A stretch of DNA of 64,000 nt. It comes from Myxococcales bacterium (GTDB taxonomy: Bacteria > Myxococcota_A > Polyangia > Polyangiales > Houyiibacteriaceae). Numbering within the stretch: the stretch's first letter is position 1; each line of letters begins with the position of its first letter. Location: assembly GCA_012744445.1 (NCBI GenBank), contig JAAYBZ010000138.1:845-64844 (forward strand), written 5' to 3'. Below are positions 5,526 through 43,110 of the stretch, one piece after another. The translations under genes were made by a program, and so were the position numbers. Under the pieces are notes generated by a model. It did not search any database. It was not told where the DNA came from and saw nothing but the letters and a program-made list of their open reading frames with translations.

Positions 5526-6638
5526 TCACGCGCGCGAGGTGTCGCGCGTGACCACGCCACCCTGCACGTGGAAGTCCACGCGATCGCGCTCGAGCAAGAT
5601 GAACTCGGGGTGCGTGGTCGTGAGGAAGACCTGCCCGCCGAGGCGCGAGATGCGCTCGAAGAGCCGCCGACTGCGCGTGCGATCGAGCTCGCTCGAGACG
5701 TCGTCGAGCAGGAGGATCGGCACCATCCCGAGGCGCTCGGCCACGTAGTCGAGCTCGGCGATCTTCATCGAGAGCGCGAGCGCGCGGTGCTGCCCCTGGC
5801 TCGCGTGATGGCGCGCGCCCACCTCGCCGAAGCGGAGCTCGAGATCGTCGAGGTGAGGGCCATCGGCCGTGAAGCCGCGGGCCCGATCCACGGGCCACGC
5901 GGCCTCGAGCGCGCGCAGGATCGCGCCCTCGTCGCCCTCGACGCGCGGGGCGTAGCGGGCCTCGAGCCGGAGCACGTCCCCTACGACCTGCTGGAAGGCG
6001 GCCTCGATGCGCGGAGCGATCTCCGTGACGAGCGCGCGGCGGTGCTCGACGATGACGGCCCCGTGCCGGGCCAGGAGGACGTCGTAGGGGGCCACGGCCC
6101 GCCGATCGACCTCCACCTCCTTGAGGAGACGATTGCGGCTCCTGAGGGCCTTCTCGTAGGCCGCGAGGGCCTCCGCGTAGAGGGGGGCGGTGGGCTCGAG
6201 GAGCTCGTCGAGGTAGGCGCGGCGGATCTCGGCGCTCCCGGTCGAGAGCGAGAGGTGCCCCGGGTGGAAGATCACGACCGGCAGGCGCTTGCGGAGGACG
6301 GCGGCGCTCTTCGGGCGCTTCCCGTCGAGGGTCACGCGCCGGGTGCGGCCCCGACCGAGCGCGACCGCGACCACCTGCGAGGTGTGCTCCGCGGCCACGC
6401 GCATCTTGAGCACGGCGTCGCCTGCGCCTAGCGCGATCACGTCGTCGGTCTTGGCGTTCCGGAAGCTCCGGAGCGTGCCGAGGAGGTAGATCGCCTCGAG
6501 CAGGTTGCTCTTGCCGGCTCCGTTCTCCCCGTGGATGACGTTGAAGTGGGGACCGGGCTCGACGTCGAGCCCTTCGAGGTTACGGAAGCCGTGCGTGGCG
6601 ATGCGCTCGATGCGAAGCGCCCGCGGGCCTTCGGCCAC
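5526..6638 (-). CDS. recF: DNA replication and repair protein RecF
   Basis: N-terminal block FRNLEGLDVEPGPHFNVIHGENGAGKSNLLEAI, SMC-like Walker A/B and signature. Lies directly downstream of dnaN. Confidence 0.95.
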   Translation of the reverse strand: MAEGPRALRIERIATHGFRNLEGLDVEPGPHFNVIHGENGAGKSNLLEAIYLLGTLRSFRNAKTDDVIALGAGDAVLKMRVAAEHTSQVVAVALGRGRTRRVTLDGKRPKSAAVLRKRLPVVIFHPGHLSLSTGSAEIRRAYLDELLEPTAPLYAEALAAYEKALRSRNRLLKEVEVDRRAVAPYDVLLARHGAVIVEHRRALVTEIAPRIEAAFQQVVGDVLRLEARYAPRVEGDEGAILRALEAAWPVDRARGFTADGPHLDDLELRFGEVGARHHASQGQHRALALSMKIAELDYVAERLGMVPILLLDDVSSELDRTRSRRLFERISRLGGQVFLTTTHPEFILLERDRVDFHVQGGVVTRDTSRA

Positions 6639-6641
6639 GGA

Positions 6642-7766
6642 TCAGATCCGCATGGGCATGACCACGCCCACGAAGTCGACGTCGTCGCCGACCGGACGGA
6701 TCACGCCGGGGTCGAGCTCGCCCGAGAGCTCGAGCGAGACCTCGTCGTGGGAGAGGGCCTGGAGCGCGTCGAGGAGGTAGCGCGCGTTGAAGCCGATGGA
6801 GATCGAGTCGCCCGAGTAGTCGACGTCGACCTCCTCGAAGCCCTCGCCCACCTCGGGGTTCTGGCTCTGCACGCGGATGAGGCCCGGCTCGATGCAGAGC
6901 TGCACGCCGCCGCTCTTGTCGTGCGCGACGAGGCTGATGCGCCGGAGCGCCTCGACGAGGTTCGCGCGGCTCGCGACGATCTTCCGCGCGTGCTGCTTGG
7001 GGATGACCTTCTCGTAGGGCGGGAACTGCTCCTCCGCGAGCTTCACGCTGAGGAACTGTCCGTCGTGGCGGAAGAAGGCGCTGCCCGCGGCCTTGGCGAT
7101 GCCGATGACGGGCGCGCCGCCCTTGTCGAGCGCGCGGACGTCGTCGAGGAGCTTGCGGAGCTCGGTGACACCCTTGTGCGGGATCAGCATCGAGAAGTCG
7201 AAGCTCGCGCCCGGGACCTTGCGCTCGGCCTTGGAGAGGCGGTGGCCGTCGGTCGTGACCATGCGCACGATCTCGCCCTTGCCCTCGAAGAGCGTGCCCG
7301 AGAGGTGCGGGCGCGTGTCGTCCGACGACATGGAGTAGTGCGTGAGCGTGATGAGCTCGACGAGGCGATCGGCCGGGACCTCCGCGAAGGTCGCGTCGAC
7401 CGGCATGGGCAGCGGCGGGAAGTCGTGCCCCGGGAAGCCCGGCACCTTGTACTGCACCTTGCCGCAGCGGATGGTCAGACCCCGGTTCTCGCCGACCGTG
7501 ATGGAGACCTCGCCCTGCGGGAGCGCCCGCACGATGTCGTGCAGCATCTTCGCGGAGACGGCGATCTGCCCTTCACGCACGACCTTGGCGGGCACCGTGG
7601 AGGTGACGCCCTGGTAGAGGTCGGTCGCGCTGAGCCGGAGCGCCTCGTCGCCCTGCGTGGCGAGCAAGACGTTGGAGAGGATGGGCATCGAGCCCTTGCG
7701 CTCCGCGACGCCGTGAGTGCGGGAGAGACCTCGCAGAAGGTCTCGCTTGTCGATGCTGAGCTCCAT
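6642..7766 (-). CDS. dnaN: DNA polymerase III beta sliding clamp
   Basis: 374 aa. N-terminus MELSIDKRDLLRGL...PILSNVLLAT, with the three-domain clamp pattern and C-terminal VVMPMRI. Confidence 0.95.
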   Translation of the reverse strand: MELSIDKRDLLRGLSRTHGVAERKGSMPILSNVLLATQGDEALRLSATDLYQGVTSTVPAKVVREGQIAVSAKMLHDIVRALPQGEVSITVGENRGLTIRCGKVQYKVPGFPGHDFPPLPMPVDATFAEVPADRLVELITLTHYSMSSDDTRPHLSGTLFEGKGEIVRMVTTDGHRLSKAERKVPGASFDFSMLIPHKGVTELRKLLDDVRALDKGGAPVIGIAKAAGSAFFRHDGQFLSVKLAEEQFPPYEKVIPKQHARKIVASRANLVEALRRISLVAHDKSGGVQLCIEPGLIRVQSQNPEVGEGFEEVDVDYSGDSISIGFNARYLLDALQALSHDEVSLELSGELDPGVIRPVGDDVDFVGVVMPMRI

Positions 7767-7786
7767 GGGTCCAGGCTTTAGGGGTC

Positions 7787-7872
7787 GATCAGGCTTCGAG
7801 ATCGATCTGGGAAATTTAAAGATCGATCACGATCATCAGGGGTGTGGATTGGGGATGTTGGCCGCGAAGATC
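7787..7872. repeat. GATC-dense, locally AT-rich segment next to the DnaA-box array
   Basis: Seven GATC sites in 86 bp (7787, 7800, 7804, 7821, 7825, 7831, 7869), including GATCGATC twice. An all-A/T 9-mer AAATTTAAA sits at 7812-7820. Confidence 0.6.
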
Positions 7873-7983
7873 GCAATTTTCAACGGCAAATCGCGACGCG
7901 GAGCGGTGGATGGAAAAGTGGACACCTCGTGGATGAGTTTTTCCACAGCCTGTCCACGGGCGATGTCCAGAGCCTTGTCCACC
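7843..7983. promoter_or_regulatory. DnaA-box cluster upstream of dnaN (candidate oriC core)
   Basis: Seven 9-mers match TT(A/G)TCCACA at >=7/9. Reverse-oriented: 7843-7851, 7917-7925, 7928-7936. Forward: 7939-7947 TTTTCCACA, 7950-7958, 7963-7971, 7975-7983 TTGTCCACC. Confidence 0.5.
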
Positions 7984-8116
7984 GGATGCTCACATGCGAG
8001 AAAGTGAGACTATATCCTACATGAGCGAGAGACCATCCCCCGCGTCACGGCGCCCATGATGGATGAGGCCCCCTGGGGTGTCGAGCACCCCCCGCGGCTT
8101 CTCGCTTGGTTCGATC

Positions 8117-8130
8117 TAGAACGTGTTCTA
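8117..8130. promoter_or_regulatory. KstR-type operator-like palindrome TAGAACGTGTTCTA
   Basis: Perfect fit to TnnAACnnGTTnnA with fully inverted arms TAGAAC/GTTCTA. It lies 10 nt upstream of the ATG of the KshA-like gene. Confidence 0.4.
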
Positions 8131-8140
8131 TTCTCGGGCG

Positions 8141-9082
8141 ATGGGTCGGACGCAGGGGCTCGAGGGGTATCCGCGAGGACACTTCGTCGTCGCGTTCTCC
8201 GACGAGCTCGCGCAGGGCGAGCTCCGGCGTCTCCACTACTTCGGCCGCGAGCTCGTCCTCTTCCGTGATGCGGAGGGGAGGCCGCGCGTCCTCTCGGCGC
8301 ACTGTCCGCACCGCGGGGCGCACCTCGGCGTGGGCGGGAGCGTCGTGGGGGGCGAGGTCCGCTGCCCCTTCCACGGCTTCCAATTCGACGGCCGCGGCCG
8401 CTGCACGAAGATCCCCTCGGGCGGGCGCGTCCCCGAGGAGGCCCGGCTCGAGGTCTTCGAGACCACCGAGCGGAACGGGATGATCACCGTGCGCTACGAC
8501 CGCGGCGGCGTCGCGCCGGACTACGAGCTGCCCGAGCTCCCCGAGTGCCTCGACCCCGAATACTCCCCCTGGATGGTCCGCACCCTCCGCGTGCGCACGC
8601 ACCCGCGGGAGATCGTCGAGAACGTCGTCGACTTCGCGCACTTCGAGCCCGTACACGAGACGTGTGCCGAGCGCTTCGAGAACGAGTTCCGCGGCCACCT
8701 CGCCGTCCAGCGGAGCGAGGGCGTCGGCGCCCCCACGCATCGCTTCGCGGGGACGGCGTACCGCATCGAGGCCGTCTACCACGGGCCGGGCGTGCAATTC
8801 TCGCGCTTCGAATCACGTGGCATCCGCGTGGTCTTCGTCAACGCCAACACCATGATCGACGAGGGCACGGTGGACCTCCGCTTCGGCGTGCGCGTCGCGA
8901 CGGGCGGCGATCCCCGCTACCACGAGGGCTTCCTCCGGCATTTCATCGGCGACCTCCAGCGCGGATACGAGCAGGACGTCGCCATCTGGGAGCACAAGGT
9001 CTTCCGCGAGCACCCGGTGCTGGCCGAAGGAGACGGCCCCATCGGCGAGCTCCGCCGCTGGTATCGTCAGTTCTACACGTGA
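8141..9082 (+). CDS. KshA-family Rieske [2Fe-2S] non-heme iron oxygenase
   Basis: Rieske motif CPHRG...CPFHG, iron motif NVVDFAHFEPVH, and CTKIP, ERNGMITVRYD. The C-terminal DVAIWEHKVF...GDGPIGELRRWYRQFY matches KshA blocks. An alternative GTG start lies at 8123. Confidence 0.8.
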   Translation: MGRTQGLEGYPRGHFVVAFSDELAQGELRRLHYFGRELVLFRDAEGRPRVLSAHCPHRGAHLGVGGSVVGGEVRCPFHGFQFDGRGRCTKIPSGGRVPEEARLEVFETTERNGMITVRYDRGGVAPDYELPELPECLDPEYSPWMVRTLRVRTHPREIVENVVDFAHFEPVHETCAERFENEFRGHLAVQRSEGVGAPTHRFAGTAYRIEAVYHGPGVQFSRFESRGIRVVFVNANTMIDEGTVDLRFGVRVATGGDPRYHEGFLRHFIGDLQRGYEQDVAIWEHKVFREHPVLAEGDGPIGELRRWYRQFYT

Positions 9083-24229: not shown

Positions 24230-26214
24230 TCGGTCCTCGTCGTGAAGAGCTCCTCGACGCGTGCGACGAGCTCTTCGGCGGTGAAGGGCTTCTTCAGGAA
24301 CGACCCTCGGAGGGTGGGATCGGCCTCGTCGAGGCCGTGCACCTGCGCGTAGCCGCTCAGGTAGAGCGCGGGCAGCGAGGGCCTCCGCTCGCGGAGCGCG
24401 CGCACGAGATCGACGCCGGTCATCCCCGGCATCATCACGTCGGTGACCACGGCCGCGACCTCGTCGACCGTGGCGTCGTAGAAGGCGAGCGCCTCCTCGC
24501 CGCCTGCCGCGAGGTGCACCCGATAGCCCGCGTCTTCGAGCACGGCCCCGAGGATCCGCCGCACCGAGGCCTCGTCGTCGACGACGAGCACGAGCTTCTG
24601 GTCCTCGTCGACGGCGCGAGGCGGCGCGTCCTGCGACGGCTCGGGCTCGGCGGAGGAGGAGACCTCTTGGGCGCGCGGGAAGTAGAGGCGGACCACCGTC
24701 CCCTCGCCGGGCTTCGAGTCGATGAGGAGCCCGCCGCCGTATTGGGAGACGATGCCGTAGACCATCGCGAGCCCGAGGCCCGTGCCGCCCTGCCCCTTCG
24801 TGGAGAAGAAGGGCTCGATGGCGCGGTGCTTCACCGCCTCGGGCATACCCGCGCCGTCGTCCTCCACCTCGAGCATCACGTAGTCGCCGGACGCCACGGT
24901 GGGCTGCACGTCGAAGATCGGCGTGTCCAAGCGCACGTCGCGGAGGCGCACGCGGATGTGCCCATCGCCCTCGATCGCGTCGCGCGCGTTGATGACGAGG
25001 TTCAAGAGCACCTGGTCGAGCTGCGAGGGCTCCGCGGTGATCTTGCCCGTGCACCCTTCGGTGGAGAGCTCGATGGAGATGGCGTCGCCGACGACGCGGC
25101 CGATCATCCCGAGCGATTCGCGCACCACGCGGACGGGATCGACGGCGCGCGTCTCGAGCACCGCCTGCCGCCCGAACGCTAGGAGTCGATGCGTGAGGTC
25201 GCTCGCCCGCTCGACCGCGCGCGAGATCTCGTCGAGCGAGGGATCGGAGATCCGCCGCTTCATGCTCGCGGCGTGTGCGCCGATCACCGTGAGCAGGTTG
25301 TTGAAGTCGTGCGCGATCCCTCCAGCGAGCCGGCCGAGCGCCTCCATCTTCTGGGCCTGGAGGAGCTGCGCCTCGTATCGCTTGCGCATCGTGACGTCGA
25401 GCGCCGTGCCGACGTAGCCCGTGGGCTTGCCGTGGTGATCGAAGATCGGCGTCGCCTCGCCGAAGACGTCGACGATCTCTCCGTCGGTGCGCACGATGCG
25501 GTATTCCCACGGCCCGATCGGCTCGCCGAGGCTCACGGCGGCGGCGATGCCCGTGATGCGATCGCGATCATCGGGGTGGACCATCGAGAAGTAGAGCTCG
25601 GGTGTCACCTTCACGTCGAAGGGCACGCCGCACATCCGGTAGATCTGCTCGGACCACTCGGCCTCGCCCGTCTCCGGGTACCACTCGAAGGTGCCCACCT
25701 TGGCGATCTGCTGCGCGCGGCGGAAGGCCTGCTCACGGCGCCATAGGTTGGCTTCGGCCTCGACGCGATCCGTCATGTCGAGGAGCGCGCCGACGAACCG
25801 CAGCGCGCGCCCCGACGCGCCCGAGGCGACCTGGCTGATCATGTGGATGTGGCGGATCGACCCATCGGGGCGGAGCACGCGGAAGTCCACCGGCTCGGCC
25901 TCGATCGCGGCCACGGCGCGGCGCGAGACCTCGCGGACCCACGCCGCGTCATCTTCGTGGATGCGCGCGAAGAACGCCTCGGACGAGGGTTTCACGCTGC
26001 GGTCGTATCCGAGGATGACGTAGAGCTGCTCCGACCAATGAATGACGTCGTTCTCGAGATCCCACGCGAAGGTCCCGACGTTGGTCACCTTCTCGGCCAT
26101 CGCGAGGAGCTGCTCGCGCACGTCGAGAGCGAAGGCGTTCGCGAGCGCCGGCCGCTCCGGTCCCTCGAGCGCCCCCCCCATCGTCCGAGACGACTGGTCC
26201 TCGGGTTCCTCCAT
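24226..26214 (-). CDS. soluble hybrid sensor histidine kinase (2 PAS, HisKA, HATPase, REC)
   Basis: PAS repeats ([34 protein letters not shown]), H-box [12 protein letters not shown]-boxes, and a C-terminal REC ([10 protein letters not shown]...[12 protein letters not shown]). Confidence 0.85.
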
Positions 26215-26358: not shown

Positions 26359-28965
26359 ATGCGACCCGATCGACTCACCACCAAGACCCGCGAAGCGCTC
26401 GTCGACGCTCAGAACCTCGCCAACGACAAAGGCCATCCCGAGGTCGTCCCCGAGCACTACTTGATCTCGCTCATCCGTCAGGAAGAGGGGCTCGCCCGTC
26501 CGGTGCTCGAGCGCGCCGGGGCCAACGTCACCACCGTCCTCGAACGCGCGGAGCGAGGGCTCTCGAGGCTCCCCGTGGTGCACGGAGGCGCCGAGGCCAC
26601 CCTCTCTCGCCGGCTCCGCCAGGTGCTCACGCGGGCGTGGAAGGAGACGGAGGCCAAGAAGGACGAGTACACGGCGGCCGACCACGTGCTCCTCGCGATG
26701 GTCCAAGAAGACGACGCGATGCGCGCGGTGATCGGCGTCGACGCCTCGGCGCTCGCGCAGGCCATCGACGCCGTGCGCGGCGGGCAGCGGGTCACCGACC
26801 CCGACCCCGAGGGCAAGTTCCAGGCGCTCGAGAAGTACACGCGCGACATCACGGCGCTCGCCAAGAAGGGCAAGCTCGATCCGGTCATCGGGCGCGACGA
26901 GGAGATCCGGCGCGTGCTCCAGGTCCTCTCGCGCCGCACCAAGAACAACCCGGTGATCATCGGCGAGCCGGGCGTCGGGAAGACGGCCATCGTCGAGGGC
27001 ATCGGCCAGCGCATCGCCAAGGGCGACGTGCCCGAGTCGCTGCAGAACAAGCGCGTCCTCGCCCTCGATCTCGGCGCGATGGTCGCGGGCTCGAAGTTCC
27101 GCGGCGAGTTCGAGGAGCGCCTCAAGGCCGTGCTCCAGGAGATCGAGAAGGCCGAGGGGCAGATCATCCTCTTCATCGACGAGCTCCACACGCTCGTCGG
27201 CGCCGGCGCGGCCGAGGGCTCGATGGACGCGAGCAACATGCTCAAGCCGGCGCTCGCCCGAGGCGAGCTCCGCTGCATCGGCGCGACCACGCTCGAGGAG
27301 TACCGCAAACACATCGAGAAGGACGCGGCGCTCGCGCGGCGTTTCCAGCCGGTCTTCGCCAACGAGCCGAGCGTCGCCGACACCATCGCGATCCTCCGCG
27401 GGCTCAAGGAGCGCTACGAGGTCCACCACGGCATCCGCATCCAGGACTCGGCGCTCGTCGCGGCGGCCACGCTCAGCGACCGGTACATCACCGATCGCTT
27501 CCTCCCCGACAAGGCCATCGACCTCGTCGACGAGGCCGCGTCGCGCCTCAAGATGGAGATCGAGTCGCTCCCGAGCGAGATCGACCAGCTCGAGCGGCGC
27601 GCCACGCAGCTCGAGATCGAGCGCGCGGCCCTCAAGCGCGAGAGCGATCCCGCGAGCCAGAAGCGCCTCGCCGAGCTCGAGGCCGAGCTCTCCGAGCTGA
27701 GCGAGAAGCGCTCGACGATGCGCGCCAAGTGGATGCGCGAGAAGGAGCTCATCGAGGTCATCCGCGACAAGAAGGAGGCCATCGAGGAGGCTCGGGTCGA
27801 CGCGGAGCGCGCGCAGCGCACGGGCGATCTCGACAAGGCGAGCCGCCTCCTCTACGGCGACATCCCCGCGCTCCAGCGCGAGCTCACCGAGGCACAGCAG
27901 AAGCTCGCCGAGGTGCAGAAGGAGGGGAGCTACCTCAACGAAGAGGTCACCGAGGAGGAGATCGCCGAGATCGTCTCGCGGTGGACGGGCATCCCCGTGA
28001 GCAAGATGCTCGAGGGCGAGAAGGAGAAGCTCCTCAAGATGGAGGAGAAGCTCTCCGAGCGGCTCGTCGGCCAGAAGGAGGCGATCACGGCCGTGAGCAA
28101 CGCGGTGCGCCGATCGCGCGCCGGGCTCGGCGACCCCAACCGCCCCATCGGCTCCTTCCTCTTCCTCGGCCCCACCGGCGTGGGCAAGACCGAGCTCGCG
28201 CGCGCCCTCGCGGAGCTCCTCTTCAACGACGAGCGCGCGATGGTGCGCATCGACATGAGCGAGTACATGGAGAAGCACGCCGTGAGCCGGCTCATCGGCG
28301 CGCCTCCGGGCTACGTCGGCTACGAGGAGGGCGGTCAGCTCACCGAGCCCGTTCGGCGGCGCCCCTACTCCGTCATCCTCTTCGACGAGGTGGAGAAGGC
28401 GCACCCGGACGTGTGGAACACGCTCCTCCAGGTGCTCGACGACGGCCGCCTCACCGACGGTCAGGGGCGCACGGTCGACTTCACCAACACGGTGATCGTC
28501 CTCACCTCGAACGTGGGCAGCGCCGAGATCCAGGACATCGCCGACGAGACGGCGCGGCGGAACGCGGTGATGCACATCCTCCGCCAGCACTTCCGGCCCG
28601 AGTTCCTCAACCGGCTCGACGAGATCATCGTCTTCCACCCGCTCGGCAAGGAGGAGCTCCGCGCCATCGTCGACATCCAGCTCGCGCGCTTCGAGAAGCG
28701 CCTCGCGGAGCGTGAGCTCGGCCTCGAGGTCACCGACGCCGCCAAGGACGCGCTCGGCGAGCTCGGCTACGACCCCACCTACGGCGCGCGGCCGCTCAAG
28801 CGGGCCATCCAGCGCTACGTGGAGAACCCGCTCGCCGAGGACCTCCTCATGGGTCGATACGCGCCGGGCGACGTGGTGGTGATCGACGCCATCGACGGGA
28901 AGCTCGGCTTCACGCGCAAGCGGCGGAACGGCGGCGGGACGACGGAGACGAGCGCGCACGTCTGA
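26359..28965 (+). CDS. clpB: ClpB disaggregase (Hsp104/ClpB AAA+)
   Basis: 868 aa. Two Walker A sites ([16 protein letters not shown]), a coiled-coil middle domain and a Clp N-domain. Confidence 0.95.
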
Positions 28966-42543: not shown

Positions 42544-42700
42544 GGCGCGCACTCTAAGGCCGAGCCTCCGCGTCCTCCAAAAACCTTGACGAAAGATCAG
42601 GATTGCACGAAGCCCCGCGACGTGGTGTGGCCGGCCCCCTCCGAGGACGGCCGTCACCCCGTGGGCCGAAAACCTACATCTTCATGCGACCTTCCCTTCG

Positions 42701-43073
42701 TCTTCCACAACCTATCCACAGCGTGTGAAAATTGGGGATAACTCGGGGCCGCTCGCGGCCTCCTCTCGGCGAGCGTCGCCGACGACGAATTTTGCAGTAA
42801 TTCCGATGTCTTACGCAGAAGAGCGGGGGCGGCTCGGAGGCCCTCGACGGGATCGCCTCGGATCGTGCTCTCGGAATTCGACGAGATCCCGAGCAGTTAG
42901 AAATTCGTGTTCGATCCCTCGTAGACGCCCCGAAAACGTCCTGCTAGGGTCGCCGCTCCTCAGCTCGAGGCAGGACGTTTCACCTCGTCGGAGCTTCCCC
43001 CCGAAGGAGCACGACGCGGCGGGCCGGCCCTGGTAGGGGGCTGAGCAGATCCCTGTGGATTACCTGGGGATCA
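42701..43073. promoter_or_regulatory. DnaA-box cluster upstream of dnaA
   Basis: 42701-42709 TCTTCCACA; 42712-42720 CTATCCACA; 42733-42741 reverse complement TTATCCCCA; 43054-43062 reverse complement TAATCCACA; 43065-43073 reverse complement TGATCCCCA. A further box sits at 43121-43129 inside the first dnaA codons. Confidence 0.45.
42934..42980. repeat. 11-bp perfect inverted repeat in the dnaA upstream spacer
   Basis: AAACGTCCTGC (42934-42944) and GCAGGACGTTT (42970-42980), separated by 25 nt. Confidence 0.6.
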
Positions 43074-43110
43074 ATGGGTTTTTCCGTCCTATTTCGTGGG
43101 TTGAACGCCG

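Follow-up and report, generated by a model that had tools for sequence, protein, structure and literature searches.

In Bacillus subtilis, the region directly upstream of dnaN, incC with its 'basal unwinding system' (BUS), runs from DnaA-box#6/7 through a GC spacer and DnaA-trios to an A/T-rich 27-mer (PMC6669920, PMC8287927), in the order TTATCCACA-AATCCACA-GGCC-trios-A/T-dnaN (Table S1 of PMC8287927). The oriC of Sorangium cellulosum So ce56, a member of the class Polyangia, has been predicted to lie between dnaN and the kinase gene sce8163 rather than beside dnaA (Gao & Zhang 2008, PMC2650636), and origins upstream of dnaN, with dnaA elsewhere, also occur among cyanobacteria, for example Microcystis and Synechococcus (PMC2650636). 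The Escherichia coli oriC, located between mnmG and mioC, contains opposed left and right box arrays and GATC sites concentrated in and beside the unwinding element.

The window analysed here, 64,000 nucleotides in length, is part of a 66.6-kb contig (C74) of a Sandaracinaceae (Myxococcota) MAG of 3.77 Mb and 70% GC, which is 94% complete and split into 236 contigs. A sequence-only reading had proposed that the 374-bp gap upstream of dnaN (7767-8140) resembles oriC. As far as sequence analysis goes, this proposal is supported by the top-ranking box cluster, by a unique and conserved dnaN-linked module, by its incC-like layout and by the skew of some related genomes, and positions 7787-7983 are likely to represent the core of its chromosomal oriC. 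For the most part the finding is an ordinary one, because a dnaN-linked origin with dnaA elsewhere has already been predicted in related bacteria; the exception is that GATC sites are conserved in this lineage, which encodes both Dam and MutH. The finding gives a likely origin location for an uncultured lineage of myxobacteria whose GC skew and gene orientation leave the origin hidden.

DnaA-box arrays upstream of dnaN

The spacer at 7767-8140 separates dnaN (6642-7766, minus strand), identified as the DNA polymerase III beta clamp by Pfam DNA_pol3_beta domains 1-3 and TIGR00663 (262 bits) and followed downstream by recF (5526-6638), from a divergent kshA-like Rieske oxygenase gene (8141-9082; Pfam Rieske and KshA_C). 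Its GC content, already described as visibly lower, is 57% compared with 70.8%, which places it among the lowest 0.04% of 374-bp windows in the genome.

All seven 9-mers that had been reported with at most two mismatches to TT(A/G)TCCACA were recovered, three on the minus and four on the plus strand. The forward boxes, TTTTCCACA (7939), CTGTCCACG (7950), ATGTCCAGA (7963) and TTGTCCACC (7975), form an array (7939-7983) that is aimed away from dnaN with a spacing of 11-13 bp; the first and the last of them are the two boxes that had been singled out as 8/9 matches, and the other two have at most two mismatches. The opposed array (7895-7936, minus strand) is aimed toward dnaN and consists of the weak box CCATCCACC (7895-7903, three mismatches) and the boxes GTGTCCACT (7917-7925) and TCATCCACG (7928-7936), each with at most two mismatches. 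Closer to dnaN lies a box that we refer to as the anchor box, CAATCCACA (7843-7851, minus strand, two mismatches), which is preceded by a conserved half-box, ATCCCC (7852-7857, minus strand), a weaker site that together with it makes up an anchor unit spanning 7843-7858.

Seven boxes with no more than two mismatches in 150 bp constitute the densest such cluster in the 3.77 Mb, the next loci containing six and five, and stand well above the genome background of 1.38 per kb. None of the boxes in the spacer matches the consensus perfectly; the only two perfect TTATCCACA boxes of the genome are found on another contig, C158. There, in a gene-free stretch of 1.65 kb (24404-26056), two identical boxes, TGTGGATAACT, enclose a stretch of 40% GC at a distance of 133 bp from each other, and all four perfect parS sites of the genome (GTTTCACGTGAAAC) occur within 2.7 kb, three of them in the non-coding region itself and the fourth ~1 kb beyond, at 27110. 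These features could mark an origin on C158, but the region contains two boxes only, is 73% GC overall, has no adjacent replication gene and, unlike the dnaN module, shows no DNA-level conservation by BLAST in 60 family genomes. Moreover, parS clusters normally lie near an origin rather than at one, and we regard an origin in this region as highly improbable.

Comparison with the basal unwinding system

On the dnaN side of the anchor box, a 4-bp G/C spacer (7839-7842), reading CCCC on the dnaN-sense strand, is followed by an 18-bp element with three-nucleotide periodicity, TGA TGA TCG TGA TCG ATC on the dnaN-sense strand (7821-7838, minus strand), and then by the all-A/T 9-mer AAATTTAAA (7812-7820), the presence of which to the left of the boxes had been noted before and which is a candidate DNA-unwinding element. 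At 37.5% GC, 7799-7838 is the 40-mer with the lowest GC content here, and it covers both the A/T tract and the periodic element. An A/T-rich element is thus present beside the boxes, though the tract is short (9 bp).

This arrangement parallels that of B. subtilis incC, where one or more boxes ending in ..TCCACA-3' on the dnaN-sense strand are likewise followed by a 4-bp G/C spacer, a periodic element of 15-18 nt, an A/T tract and dnaN, and where further boxes are located upstream; the G/C spacer is GGCC in B. subtilis and CCCC in the window. Judged by the BUS definition of Pelliciari et al. 2021, which asks for a box with no more than two mismatches, alone or accompanied by a second one, within 16 bp of the trios and for an A/T-rich region after them, CAATCCACA precedes the periodic element by a spacer of 4-6 bp and the A/T-rich region follows it. 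There are also clear differences from incC: the counterpart of the second 'box' is a half-box with an offset of 7 nt instead of 9, the A/T tract is far shorter (9-13 bp) and dnaA is not found upstream.

The periodic element occupies the position of the DnaA-trios in incC, and we compared it with the trios of Table S1 of PMC8287927. After a 6-nt spacer, the window strand reads 3'-TAC TAG CAC TAG-5', which formally provides the three or more 3'-NAN-5' trios that the definition places on the strand whose 3' end abuts the box, but in a frame that is not conserved in the family. Across 24 family sequences the element reads T(T/G)A and then (NGA)x4 on the box strand, with the consensus 3'-AAT TCT GCT TCT GCT-5' and a central C; that is, 3'-NCT-5' as opposed to the canonical 3'-GAT-5' with its central A, and only the box-proximal TTA (3'-AAT-5'), present in about half of the relatives, is canonical. 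The family consensus thus does not fit canonical DnaA-trios; what is conserved across the family is the three-nucleotide periodicity itself. A small ORF was dismissed as the source of the periodicity, the NGA frame containing TGA stops in many relatives and the alignments displaying no conserved start codon.

Conservation of the module across the family

The same order of elements, namely two opposed box arrays, a box, a 4-bp G/C spacer, a three-nucleotide-periodic element and an A/T tract, was found upstream of dnaN in 23 of the 23 relatives examined, with dnaA adjacent or not. In an alignment of 22 Sandaracinaceae dnaN-upstream regions, reverse boxes and forward boxes are followed by GATCnATCCCC-AATCCACA, a GCCC spacer, five trinucleotides, AATTGAATTTAAA and GATCT, and this order is unchanged whether or not dnaA is adjacent. 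The most conserved part of the spacer is the anchor box with its half-box, the ...CCACA columns of which are invariant in the 22 sequences. The reverse array of the window (7895-7936) aligns with TCnTCCCCA / ATCCAC boxes of the relatives and the forward array (7939-7983) with their CTGTGGA/CTGGGGA repeats; the G/C spacer is conserved as GCCC, CCCC or GGAC, and 11-13 positions of a 13-nt window at the offset matching the A/T tract are A/T, with the consensus AATTGAATTTAAA.

A family profile of dnaN-upstream regions, built from the relatives and excluding the window's own sequence, matched the 3.77-Mb genome only once, at 7832-7999 on the minus strand (C74:8676-8843; nhmmer E = 7.4e-16), in an intergenic region directly upstream of a replication gene, dnaN. 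The profile also had one match each in the related genomes G001, G016, G017 and G034, in every case directly upstream of dnaN and in none beside dnaA; the match in G001 is not independent, because the sequence of this genome went into the profile. The family-wide alignment amounts to a natural experiment on which elements of an origin are indispensable.

Compared with the predicted origin of S. cellulosum So ce56, the locus shares membership of the Polyangia, placement in the spacer upstream of dnaN, G/C-rich boxes with a TCCCC core and weak GC skew, but nine sites are present here as opposed to the three boxes reported there, and neither a GATC cluster nor a periodic element has been described for So ce56. 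The dnaN-linked origins of cyanobacteria, with boxes of the TTTTCCACA type, belong to an unrelated phylum; in the family studied here, sister genera keep the ancestral order dnaA-oriC-dnaN.

Separation of dnaA and dnaN

That dnaA does not adjoin the box array, as had been remarked, is correct, yet the gene lies in the same window: the sole copy in the genome (43111-44490, plus strand; PF00308, 212 bits; TIGR00362, 499 bits) is located 35 kb from the array and is divergent from dnaN. The view that this is unusual did not stand, given that dnaA and dnaN are apart in many genera of the family, the gap between the two box clusters ranging from 4 kb up to location on different contigs, and that the dnaN-linked oriC of Sorangium cellulosum, where dnaA is far from dnaN, offers a precedent (PMC2650636). 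The ancestral order is still present in sister genera.

The 429-bp spacer upstream of dnaA (42682-43110) contains six boxes of its own between 42701 and 43073, namely TCTTCCACA (42701), CTATCCACA (42712) and, on the minus strand, ATTTTCACA (42724), TTATCCCCA (42733), TAATCCACA (43054) and TGATCCCCA (43065). Half of them (3/6) are 8/9 matches, a quality slightly above that of the dnaN-spacer boxes, and a tandem TGTGGATAGCCTGTGGATCA ~50 nt ahead of the dnaA start codon is conserved in the relatives. This region is the main rival candidate for the origin: the working origin could have moved with dnaA, in which case the dnaN array would either control the dnaN promoter in a DnaA-dependent manner or be what is left, in decay, of the ancestral dnaA-dnaN origin. 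Besides the number and quality of the boxes and the conservation of the tandem across the family, such a reading can draw on other bacteria, e.g. Pseudomonas, in which origins upstream of dnaA exist. Against it, the dnaA spacer has neither an A/T tract after the boxes nor a periodic element, its base composition is less extreme than that of the dnaN spacer (61% GC, lowest-GC 40-mer 42.5%), and the dnaN module shows no decay in those genomes that dnaA has left. We consider a dnaA-side origin unlikely and read the region upstream of dnaA as a putative autoregulatory region of this gene.

The two clusters might instead act together, looping across 35 kb as parts of a bipartite origin of the kind found in B. 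subtilis or Helicobacter pylori. Both are conserved in the family and, where the genes are adjacent, flank dnaA just as incAB and incC do. The boxes 40-60 nt ahead of the dnaA start codon, however, occupy the usual position for autoregulation, and an obligatory partnership in cis is unlikely because in many genera the clusters are widely separated, from 4 kb to at least different contigs; a bipartite origin appears very unlikely to us.

The module probably lay between dnaA and dnaN in the ancestor, and in this genome a rearrangement of ~35 kb, in its simplest form a single inversion that broke immediately behind dnaA, would have carried dnaA off while the origin stayed at dnaN; the displaced dnaA would have retained its own autoregulatory boxes. 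The origin module remains with dnaN when the two genes part, as has happened repeatedly in the family, which yields a useful annotation rule for Polyangia genomes and MAGs.

Strand composition

Because the MAG is divided into 236 contigs, whole-chromosome skew is not computable for it, and on its own contig C74 GC skew, AT, RY and MK disparity and gene-strand bias (the latter based on a home-made GC3-based gene caller) gave no usable signal. In G017, which is complete (9.07 Mb), the GC skew changes sign at ~1.9-2.8 Mb and again at 7.3-7.75 Mb, and the cumulative skew minimum, at position 2,659,176, lies 4.4 kb from the module (2,654,571-2,654,753) and 9.7 kb from dnaA, that is, on the dnaN side. 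In G016, which carries dnaA and dnaN on separate contigs, the skew shows no turn at dnaA, which also speaks against an origin there, and the MK and AT disparity maxima are found 7-12 kb from dnaN. The curves of G001 (386 kb around dnaN and 400 kb around dnaA) oscillate, with small local skew minima at both loci; the minimum at dnaA is compatible with a dnaA-side origin, but since the curves oscillate and both loci have minima, the skew of this genome does not discriminate between them. The G034 curve bends at dnaN and has no clean V, the global minimum of the 323 kb examined being 130 kb away. Among the relatives, the skew of G017 and G016 thus points to an origin near the dnaN module, and that of G001 and G034 is ambiguous.

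GATC sites and the Dam-family methylase

The spacer indeed contains the seven GATC sites in 86 bp that the sequence-only reading had pointed out, at 7787, 7800, 7804, 7821, 7825, 7831 and 7869; the block (7787-7872) flanks the A/T tract and extends into the periodic element, and an additional site is found at 8113. Genome-wide, GATC occurs 9.4 times per kb, yet just three loci reach seven in 86 bp. The 260 bp upstream of dnaN contain 7 GATC sites, where local shuffles predict 0.96 and the genome background 2.4, and in the 23 relatives 126 sites were counted against 21 expected from local shuffles. The offsets of these sites from the anchor box recur at -29, -10, +26, +37 to +42 and +49 to +52, so that across the family four to five GATC sites surround the anchor box, periodic element and A/T tract at constant positions. 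The crowding is real, positionally conserved and family-specific.

A search of the genome for a GATC methyltransferase, as had been suggested, recovered an orphan Dam-family methylase (C126:31684-32601; TIGR00571, 280 bits with a cut-off of 115), which resembles DpnM (1e-65) and E. coli Dam (1e-41) and is adjoined by no restriction gene; 60 of 61 family genomes encode such a methylase, and by homology it would be specific for GATC. The lineage also has a true MutH orthologue. GATC crowding had been called unexpected outside lineages that use Dam and SeqA, but with respect to Dam it is not unusual here, this lineage carrying Dam as well as MutH. SeqA was not found: the 94%-complete genome yielded no PF03925 match in a search that, as a control, recovered SeqA in E. 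coli. Two marks of an origin of the Dam/SeqA type, the GATC cluster and Dam, are therefore present and SeqA is the one not detected. Our literature search on Dam or MutH in Myxococcota returned nothing specific. Presence of Dam was discarded as a correlate of the GATC excess, as 8 of 10 more distant Myxococcota have Dam and no GATC excess upstream of dnaN.

The likeness to E. coli accordingly extends to opposed box arrays, to GATC sites concentrated in and beside the (here candidate) unwinding element and to a genome encoding Dam and MutH, and relatives contain GATCTnTTCT-like strings that resemble the 13-mers. The window itself differs in having no 13-mer repeats, the locus adjoins dnaN instead of lying between mnmG and mioC, the search for SeqA gave no homologue, and methylation of the GATC sites at the origin is putative.

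Proposed initiation at the dnaN-proximal module

Under the preferred reading of 7787-7983 as the core of oriC, DnaA-ATP would fill the two opposed arrays of low to medium affinity, with four boxes at 7939-7983 and three at 7895-7936, and would also bind the conserved dnaN-proximal anchor box (7843-7858). From there, a DnaA oligomer could grow over the 4-bp G/C spacer onto the 18-bp periodic element (7821-7838) and open the A/T tract (7812-7820), where the helicase would be loaded, a layout corresponding to the 'basal unwinding system' of B. subtilis incC, which is likewise directly upstream of dnaN. The orphan Dam probably acts on the conserved GATC sites, and the origin would then be transiently hemimethylated after firing.

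We tentatively suggest that in Sandaracinaceae control of initiation depends on Dam methylation without SeqA, jointly with a deviant motif at the trio position (NGA, i.e. 3'-NCT-5' and not 3'-GAT-5'), although this combination is at present a doubtful proposition. If the deviant motif is read correctly, the DnaA of this lineage would either recognize a different single-strand motif or engage the opposite strand. Both points offer leads, one toward a function of Dam at origins beyond the Gammaproteobacteria and the other toward a variant of the DnaA-trio element.

Other features of the spacer

Scanned against Rfam, the window and the C158 locus gave no match to an RNA family within either of the two spacers. 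A promoter and terminator scan of 7700-8200 returned a single weak promoter-like site, and the 'terminator' called in this interval is merely a GATC palindrome together with the A/T tract. The palindrome TAGAACGTGTTCTA (8117-8130) was rejected as part of the origin and corresponds to a KstR-type operator in front of the divergent kshA-like gene; a looser form of it has 29 matches genome-wide, ~27 of which are near TAGAACnnGTTCTA.

A conserved sequence module upstream of dnaN

The window spans positions 845-64844 of contig C74 in a metagenome-assembled genome (MAG) of 3.77 Mb (236 contigs, 94% complete, 70.4% GC). Every one of its best DnaN matches, at 57-66% identity, belongs to a MAG labelled Sandaracinaceae or Sandaracinus, which places the window in the Sandaracinaceae (Myxococcota, Polyangia). 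The gene-free spacer at 7767-8140 is bordered by dnaN (6642-7766, minus strand), followed by recF (5526-6638, minus strand), and on its far side by a divergent gene for a kshA-like Rieske oxygenase (8141-9082, plus strand), with an acetyl-CoA-synthetase-like gene on that same side. The sequence-only reading, which took this spacer for oriC, correctly stated that dnaA is not next to it: the sole dnaA copy of the genome (43111-44490, plus strand) is divergent from dnaN and 35 kb away within the same window, the order being dnaN(-), module, 35 kb, dnaA upstream region, dnaA(+).

The features on which that reading drew were all recovered, namely seven DnaA boxes with at most two mismatches to TT(A/G)TCCACA (7843, 7917 and 7928 on the minus strand; 7939, 7950, 7963 and 7975 on the plus strand), seven GATC sites in 86 bp (7787-7872), the A/T-only 9-mer AAATTTAAA at 7812-7820 and a low GC content (57%, within the bottom 0.04% of 374-bp windows). 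An eighth GATC lies at 8113, and the lowest-GC 40-mer of the spacer is 7799-7838 (37.5% GC). Boxes with up to two mismatches occur genome-wide at 1.38 per kb, and the spacer is the only locus in the genome with seven of them in 150 bp; the next-best clusters, of six and five boxes, fall inside genes. Only three loci genome-wide reach seven GATC in 86 bp, and the 260 bp upstream of the window's dnaN contain seven GATC versus 0.96 expected from local shuffles. The clustering of boxes, the low GC and the GATC crowding of the spacer exceed chance.

Read on the dnaN-sense strand toward dnaN, the module (core 7787-7983) starts with four boxes facing away from dnaN (7983-7939, spacing 11-13 bp) and three boxes facing dnaN (7936-7895), followed by a gap of about 40 bp, ATCCCC-AATCCACA (a half-box and the dnaN-proximal anchor box; 7858-7843), a CCCC spacer (7842-7839), the periodic element TGA TGA TCG TGA TCG ATC (7838-7821), the A/T tract TTTAAATTT (7820-7812) and two further GATC palindromes before the dnaN start. 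When the window was aligned with the regions preceding dnaN in 21 Sandaracinaceae genomes, this whole architecture proved to be kept: five CTGTGGA/CTGGGGA-type reverse boxes and three TCCCCA/TCCAC forward boxes are followed by a spacer and then by GATCnATCCCC-AATCCACA-GCCC-TTA AGA CGA AGA CGA-AATTGAATTTAAA-GATCT, with the CCACA of the anchor box invariant. A separate module comparison took in 24 sequences. The module is just as well preserved where dnaA lies directly upstream of dnaN (loci L007, L009, L010, L011, L012, L023, L024 and L039) and where dnaA is absent within 6 kb of dnaN (the window and loci L003, L005, L013, L015, L017, L018, L019 and L021). A profile HMM made from the relatives alone, with the window's row left out, gave a single match in the entire 3.77-Mb genome, at 7832-7999 of the window (E = 7.4e-16). 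In the fetched stretches of four relatives (G001, G016, G017 and G034) the same profile matched once each, directly upstream of dnaN, and not beside dnaA; the G001 sequence went into the profile, and those of the other three apparently did not.

A palindrome at the far right of the spacer, TAGAACGTGTTCTA at 8117-8130, does not belong to the origin; it is a KstR-type operator directly upstream of the kshA-like (3-ketosteroid 9-alpha-hydroxylase-type) gene, with about 27 such sites genome-wide. A looser KstR-type pattern yields 29 genome-wide sites, of which about 27 closely resemble TAGAACnnGTTCTA, and these sites suggest a steroid-catabolism-like regulon in a myxobacterium.

Probable location of the replication origin

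The separation of dnaA from dnaN, which the sequence-only reading considered unusual, proved to be recurrent across the 60 family genomes sampled. All 28 genomes of genus g3 have the two genes adjacent, as do g2, g4, g9, g10 and g16. The genes lie 4 kb apart in g12 (G017), 8-22 kb in g13 and 30 kb in g8 (G012, with the closest DnaN), are re-ordered in g14, and in g11, g7, g5 and the window's own genus are split between contigs. A single inversion that broke immediately downstream of dnaA would yield exactly the geometry of the window, and the Sandaracinaceae seem to have a rearrangement hotspot in the origin region. Like the window module, the origin predicted for Sorangium cellulosum So ce56 is on dnaN rather than dnaA, between a kinase gene and dnaN, and carries a TTATCCCCC box (Gao and Zhang, PMC2650636); cyanobacterial origins are also dnaN-linked (PMC2650636). 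As to other genes and copies, recF too is detached from dnaN in G001, 73 kb from dnaA, and the 56%-complete family genome G041 shows two full-length dnaN genes in inverted orientation 38 kb apart on one contig (C37:27902-29053, plus strand, and 66599-67750, minus strand), an arrangement due either to an assembly artefact or to a genuine inverted duplication around the origin.

The MAG is fragmented, and neither skew nor gene orientation follows any pattern along the window's contig; strand composition was therefore examined in relatives. Coarse sampling of G017, a complete family member of 9.07 Mb, gave negative GC skew from ~7.75 Mb through the record start to 1.45 Mb and positive skew at 2.35-7.3 Mb. 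Over 400 contiguous kb, the cumulative GC-skew minimum falls at 2,659,176 and the MK maximum at 2,659,219, with the module at 2,654,571-2,654,753 and the dnaA start at 2,649,427, so that the origin maps to the dnaA/dnaN neighbourhood, slightly on the dnaN side. In G016, where dnaA and dnaN are on different large contigs, skew keeps falling steadily across dnaA without turning at the gene, and the MK and AT maxima of the dnaN contig are 7-12 kb from dnaN. G034 displays a slope change at dnaN, but the minimum of the fetched 323 kb sits 130 kb off, and G001 has small local skew minima at both the dnaN and dnaA loci. Combined, the skew of the relatives favours dnaN over dnaA, although not decisively.

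Two other loci of the genome could rival the dnaN spacer. The spacer upstream of dnaA (42682-43110) carries six DnaA boxes, among them a family-conserved tandem TGTGGATTA-CC-TGGGGATCA some 50 nt ahead of the dnaA start codon, but is less AT-rich than the dnaN spacer and has neither an A/T tract nor a periodic element beside its boxes; we read it as a putative dnaA autoregulatory region. The same spacer also holds six GATC and, between its distal and proximal boxes, the family-conserved strings GTTACGAAT..CGATCTCGGTCGTAGACG..TTTGCTAGCGTCGTCG. A 1.65-kb gene-free region on contig C158 (24404-26056; locus L002 6404-8056) could likewise be the origin, as it harbours the genome's only two perfect TTATCCACA boxes, present as TGTGGATAACT at 25500 and 25633, 133 bp apart; however, these are its only boxes, its GC content is 73%, and no DNA-level conservation was found across 60 family genomes. 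The genome has four perfect parS sites (GTTTCACGTGAAAC), all on C158 within 2.7 kb (24428, 24650, 25448 and 27110), with three of them inside this region, which is probably a centromere with putative DnaA-binding sites.

The conservation of the module across the Sandaracinaceae and its single profile match in the genome, upstream of dnaN, support the initial oriC assignment, and we consider it fairly likely that the module in the dnaN spacer is oriC. The predicted origin belongs to an already-known type, dnaN-linked and incC-type.

Comparison with the basal unwinding system

The basal unwinding system (BUS) of B. subtilis incC comprises a box, a G/C spacer, DnaA-trios and an A/T-rich region. 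Table S1 of Pelliciari et al. (PMC8287927) gives the trio strand 3' to 5', the B. subtilis row being AATAGGTGT-TTAGGTGT-CCGG-GATGATAATGAAGATGAT; the E. coli row, where the top strand is written reversed and ends in R1, confirmed the convention (PMC8287927). Recast to dnaN-sense, the B. subtilis row becomes 5'-TTATCCACA-AATCCACA-GGCC-CTACTATTACTTCTACTA, followed by an A/T-rich 27-mer and dnaN. The Sandaracinaceae module matches this in order, orientation and its 4-bp G/C spacer, whereas its trinucleotides, T(T/G)A then four NGA (on the canonical trio strand, 3'-A(A/C)T then NCT-5'), have a central C in place of the conserved central A of the canonical DnaA-trio. About half of the sequences have a canonical first trinucleotide (3'-AAT-5'). 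Formally, the window contains a match to the published search rule (a 2-mismatch box, a 6-nt spacer and 3'-TAC TAG CAC TAG-5'), in a frame unconserved in relatives, and canonical NTN runs are found on the box strand at more distant Myxococcota loci (L035, L037 and L042). The element is periodic, conserved and rightly placed, yet has a central C, and is therefore regarded as a deviant of the DnaA-trio, of a kind anticipated by Pelliciari et al. (PMC8287927). We do not classify the module as an established BUS. The deviant trinucleotide element is a modestly novel lead.

GATC sites and Dam methylation

The crowding of GATC was initially thought unexpected outside lineages that use Dam and SeqA. 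The crowding is real and SeqA was not found in the window's genome (94% complete), but the lineage does not lack Dam. The genome encodes a Dam-family methyltransferase (C126:31684-32601; TIGR00571, 280 bits versus a cut-off of 115), an orphan because the adjacent genes encode a hydrolase and a histidine kinase; its best solved relatives, DpnM (1e-65) and E. coli Dam (1e-41), are both GATC-specific, and its own specificity is assigned by homology. There is also a full-length MutH orthologue (C116:3-791; H. influenzae MutH 7e-48 versus Sau3AI 1e-4). Descriptions of methyl-directed mismatch repair usually treat it as a trait of Gammaproteobacteria. Among 201 Myxococcota genomes sampled, Dam is present in 124 and MutH in 87, with both in all 13 sampled members of the window's family; a single copy of Dam occurs in 60 of 61 family genomes. 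With Dam and MutH present, the lineage very probably methylates GATC. Family-wide gene rearrangement and the Dam and MutH content of the lineage account for the two features that appeared surprising.

GATC offsets from the anchor box are fixed across genera (-29, -10, +26, +37 to +42 and +49 to +52). The 260 bp upstream of dnaN contain 126 GATC in 23 Sandaracinaceae, versus 21 in local shuffles and 53 from the locus background, and 17 in 14 other Myxococcota, versus 12 and 18, respectively. Dam is also present in eight of ten other Myxococcota genomes checked, which lack a GATC excess; a GATC-rich origin therefore characterizes the family and does not follow automatically from having Dam. Use of methylation in regulating this origin is plausible but unproven and, if true, would need a reader other than SeqA; positionally conserved GATCs without SeqA constitute another modestly novel lead. 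The genome-wide GATC density of 9.4 per kb exceeds by more than threefold the value of about 2.8 per kb estimated from base composition at 70% GC, and in one Myxococcota family MutH occurs in 14 of 20 genomes with no close Dam.
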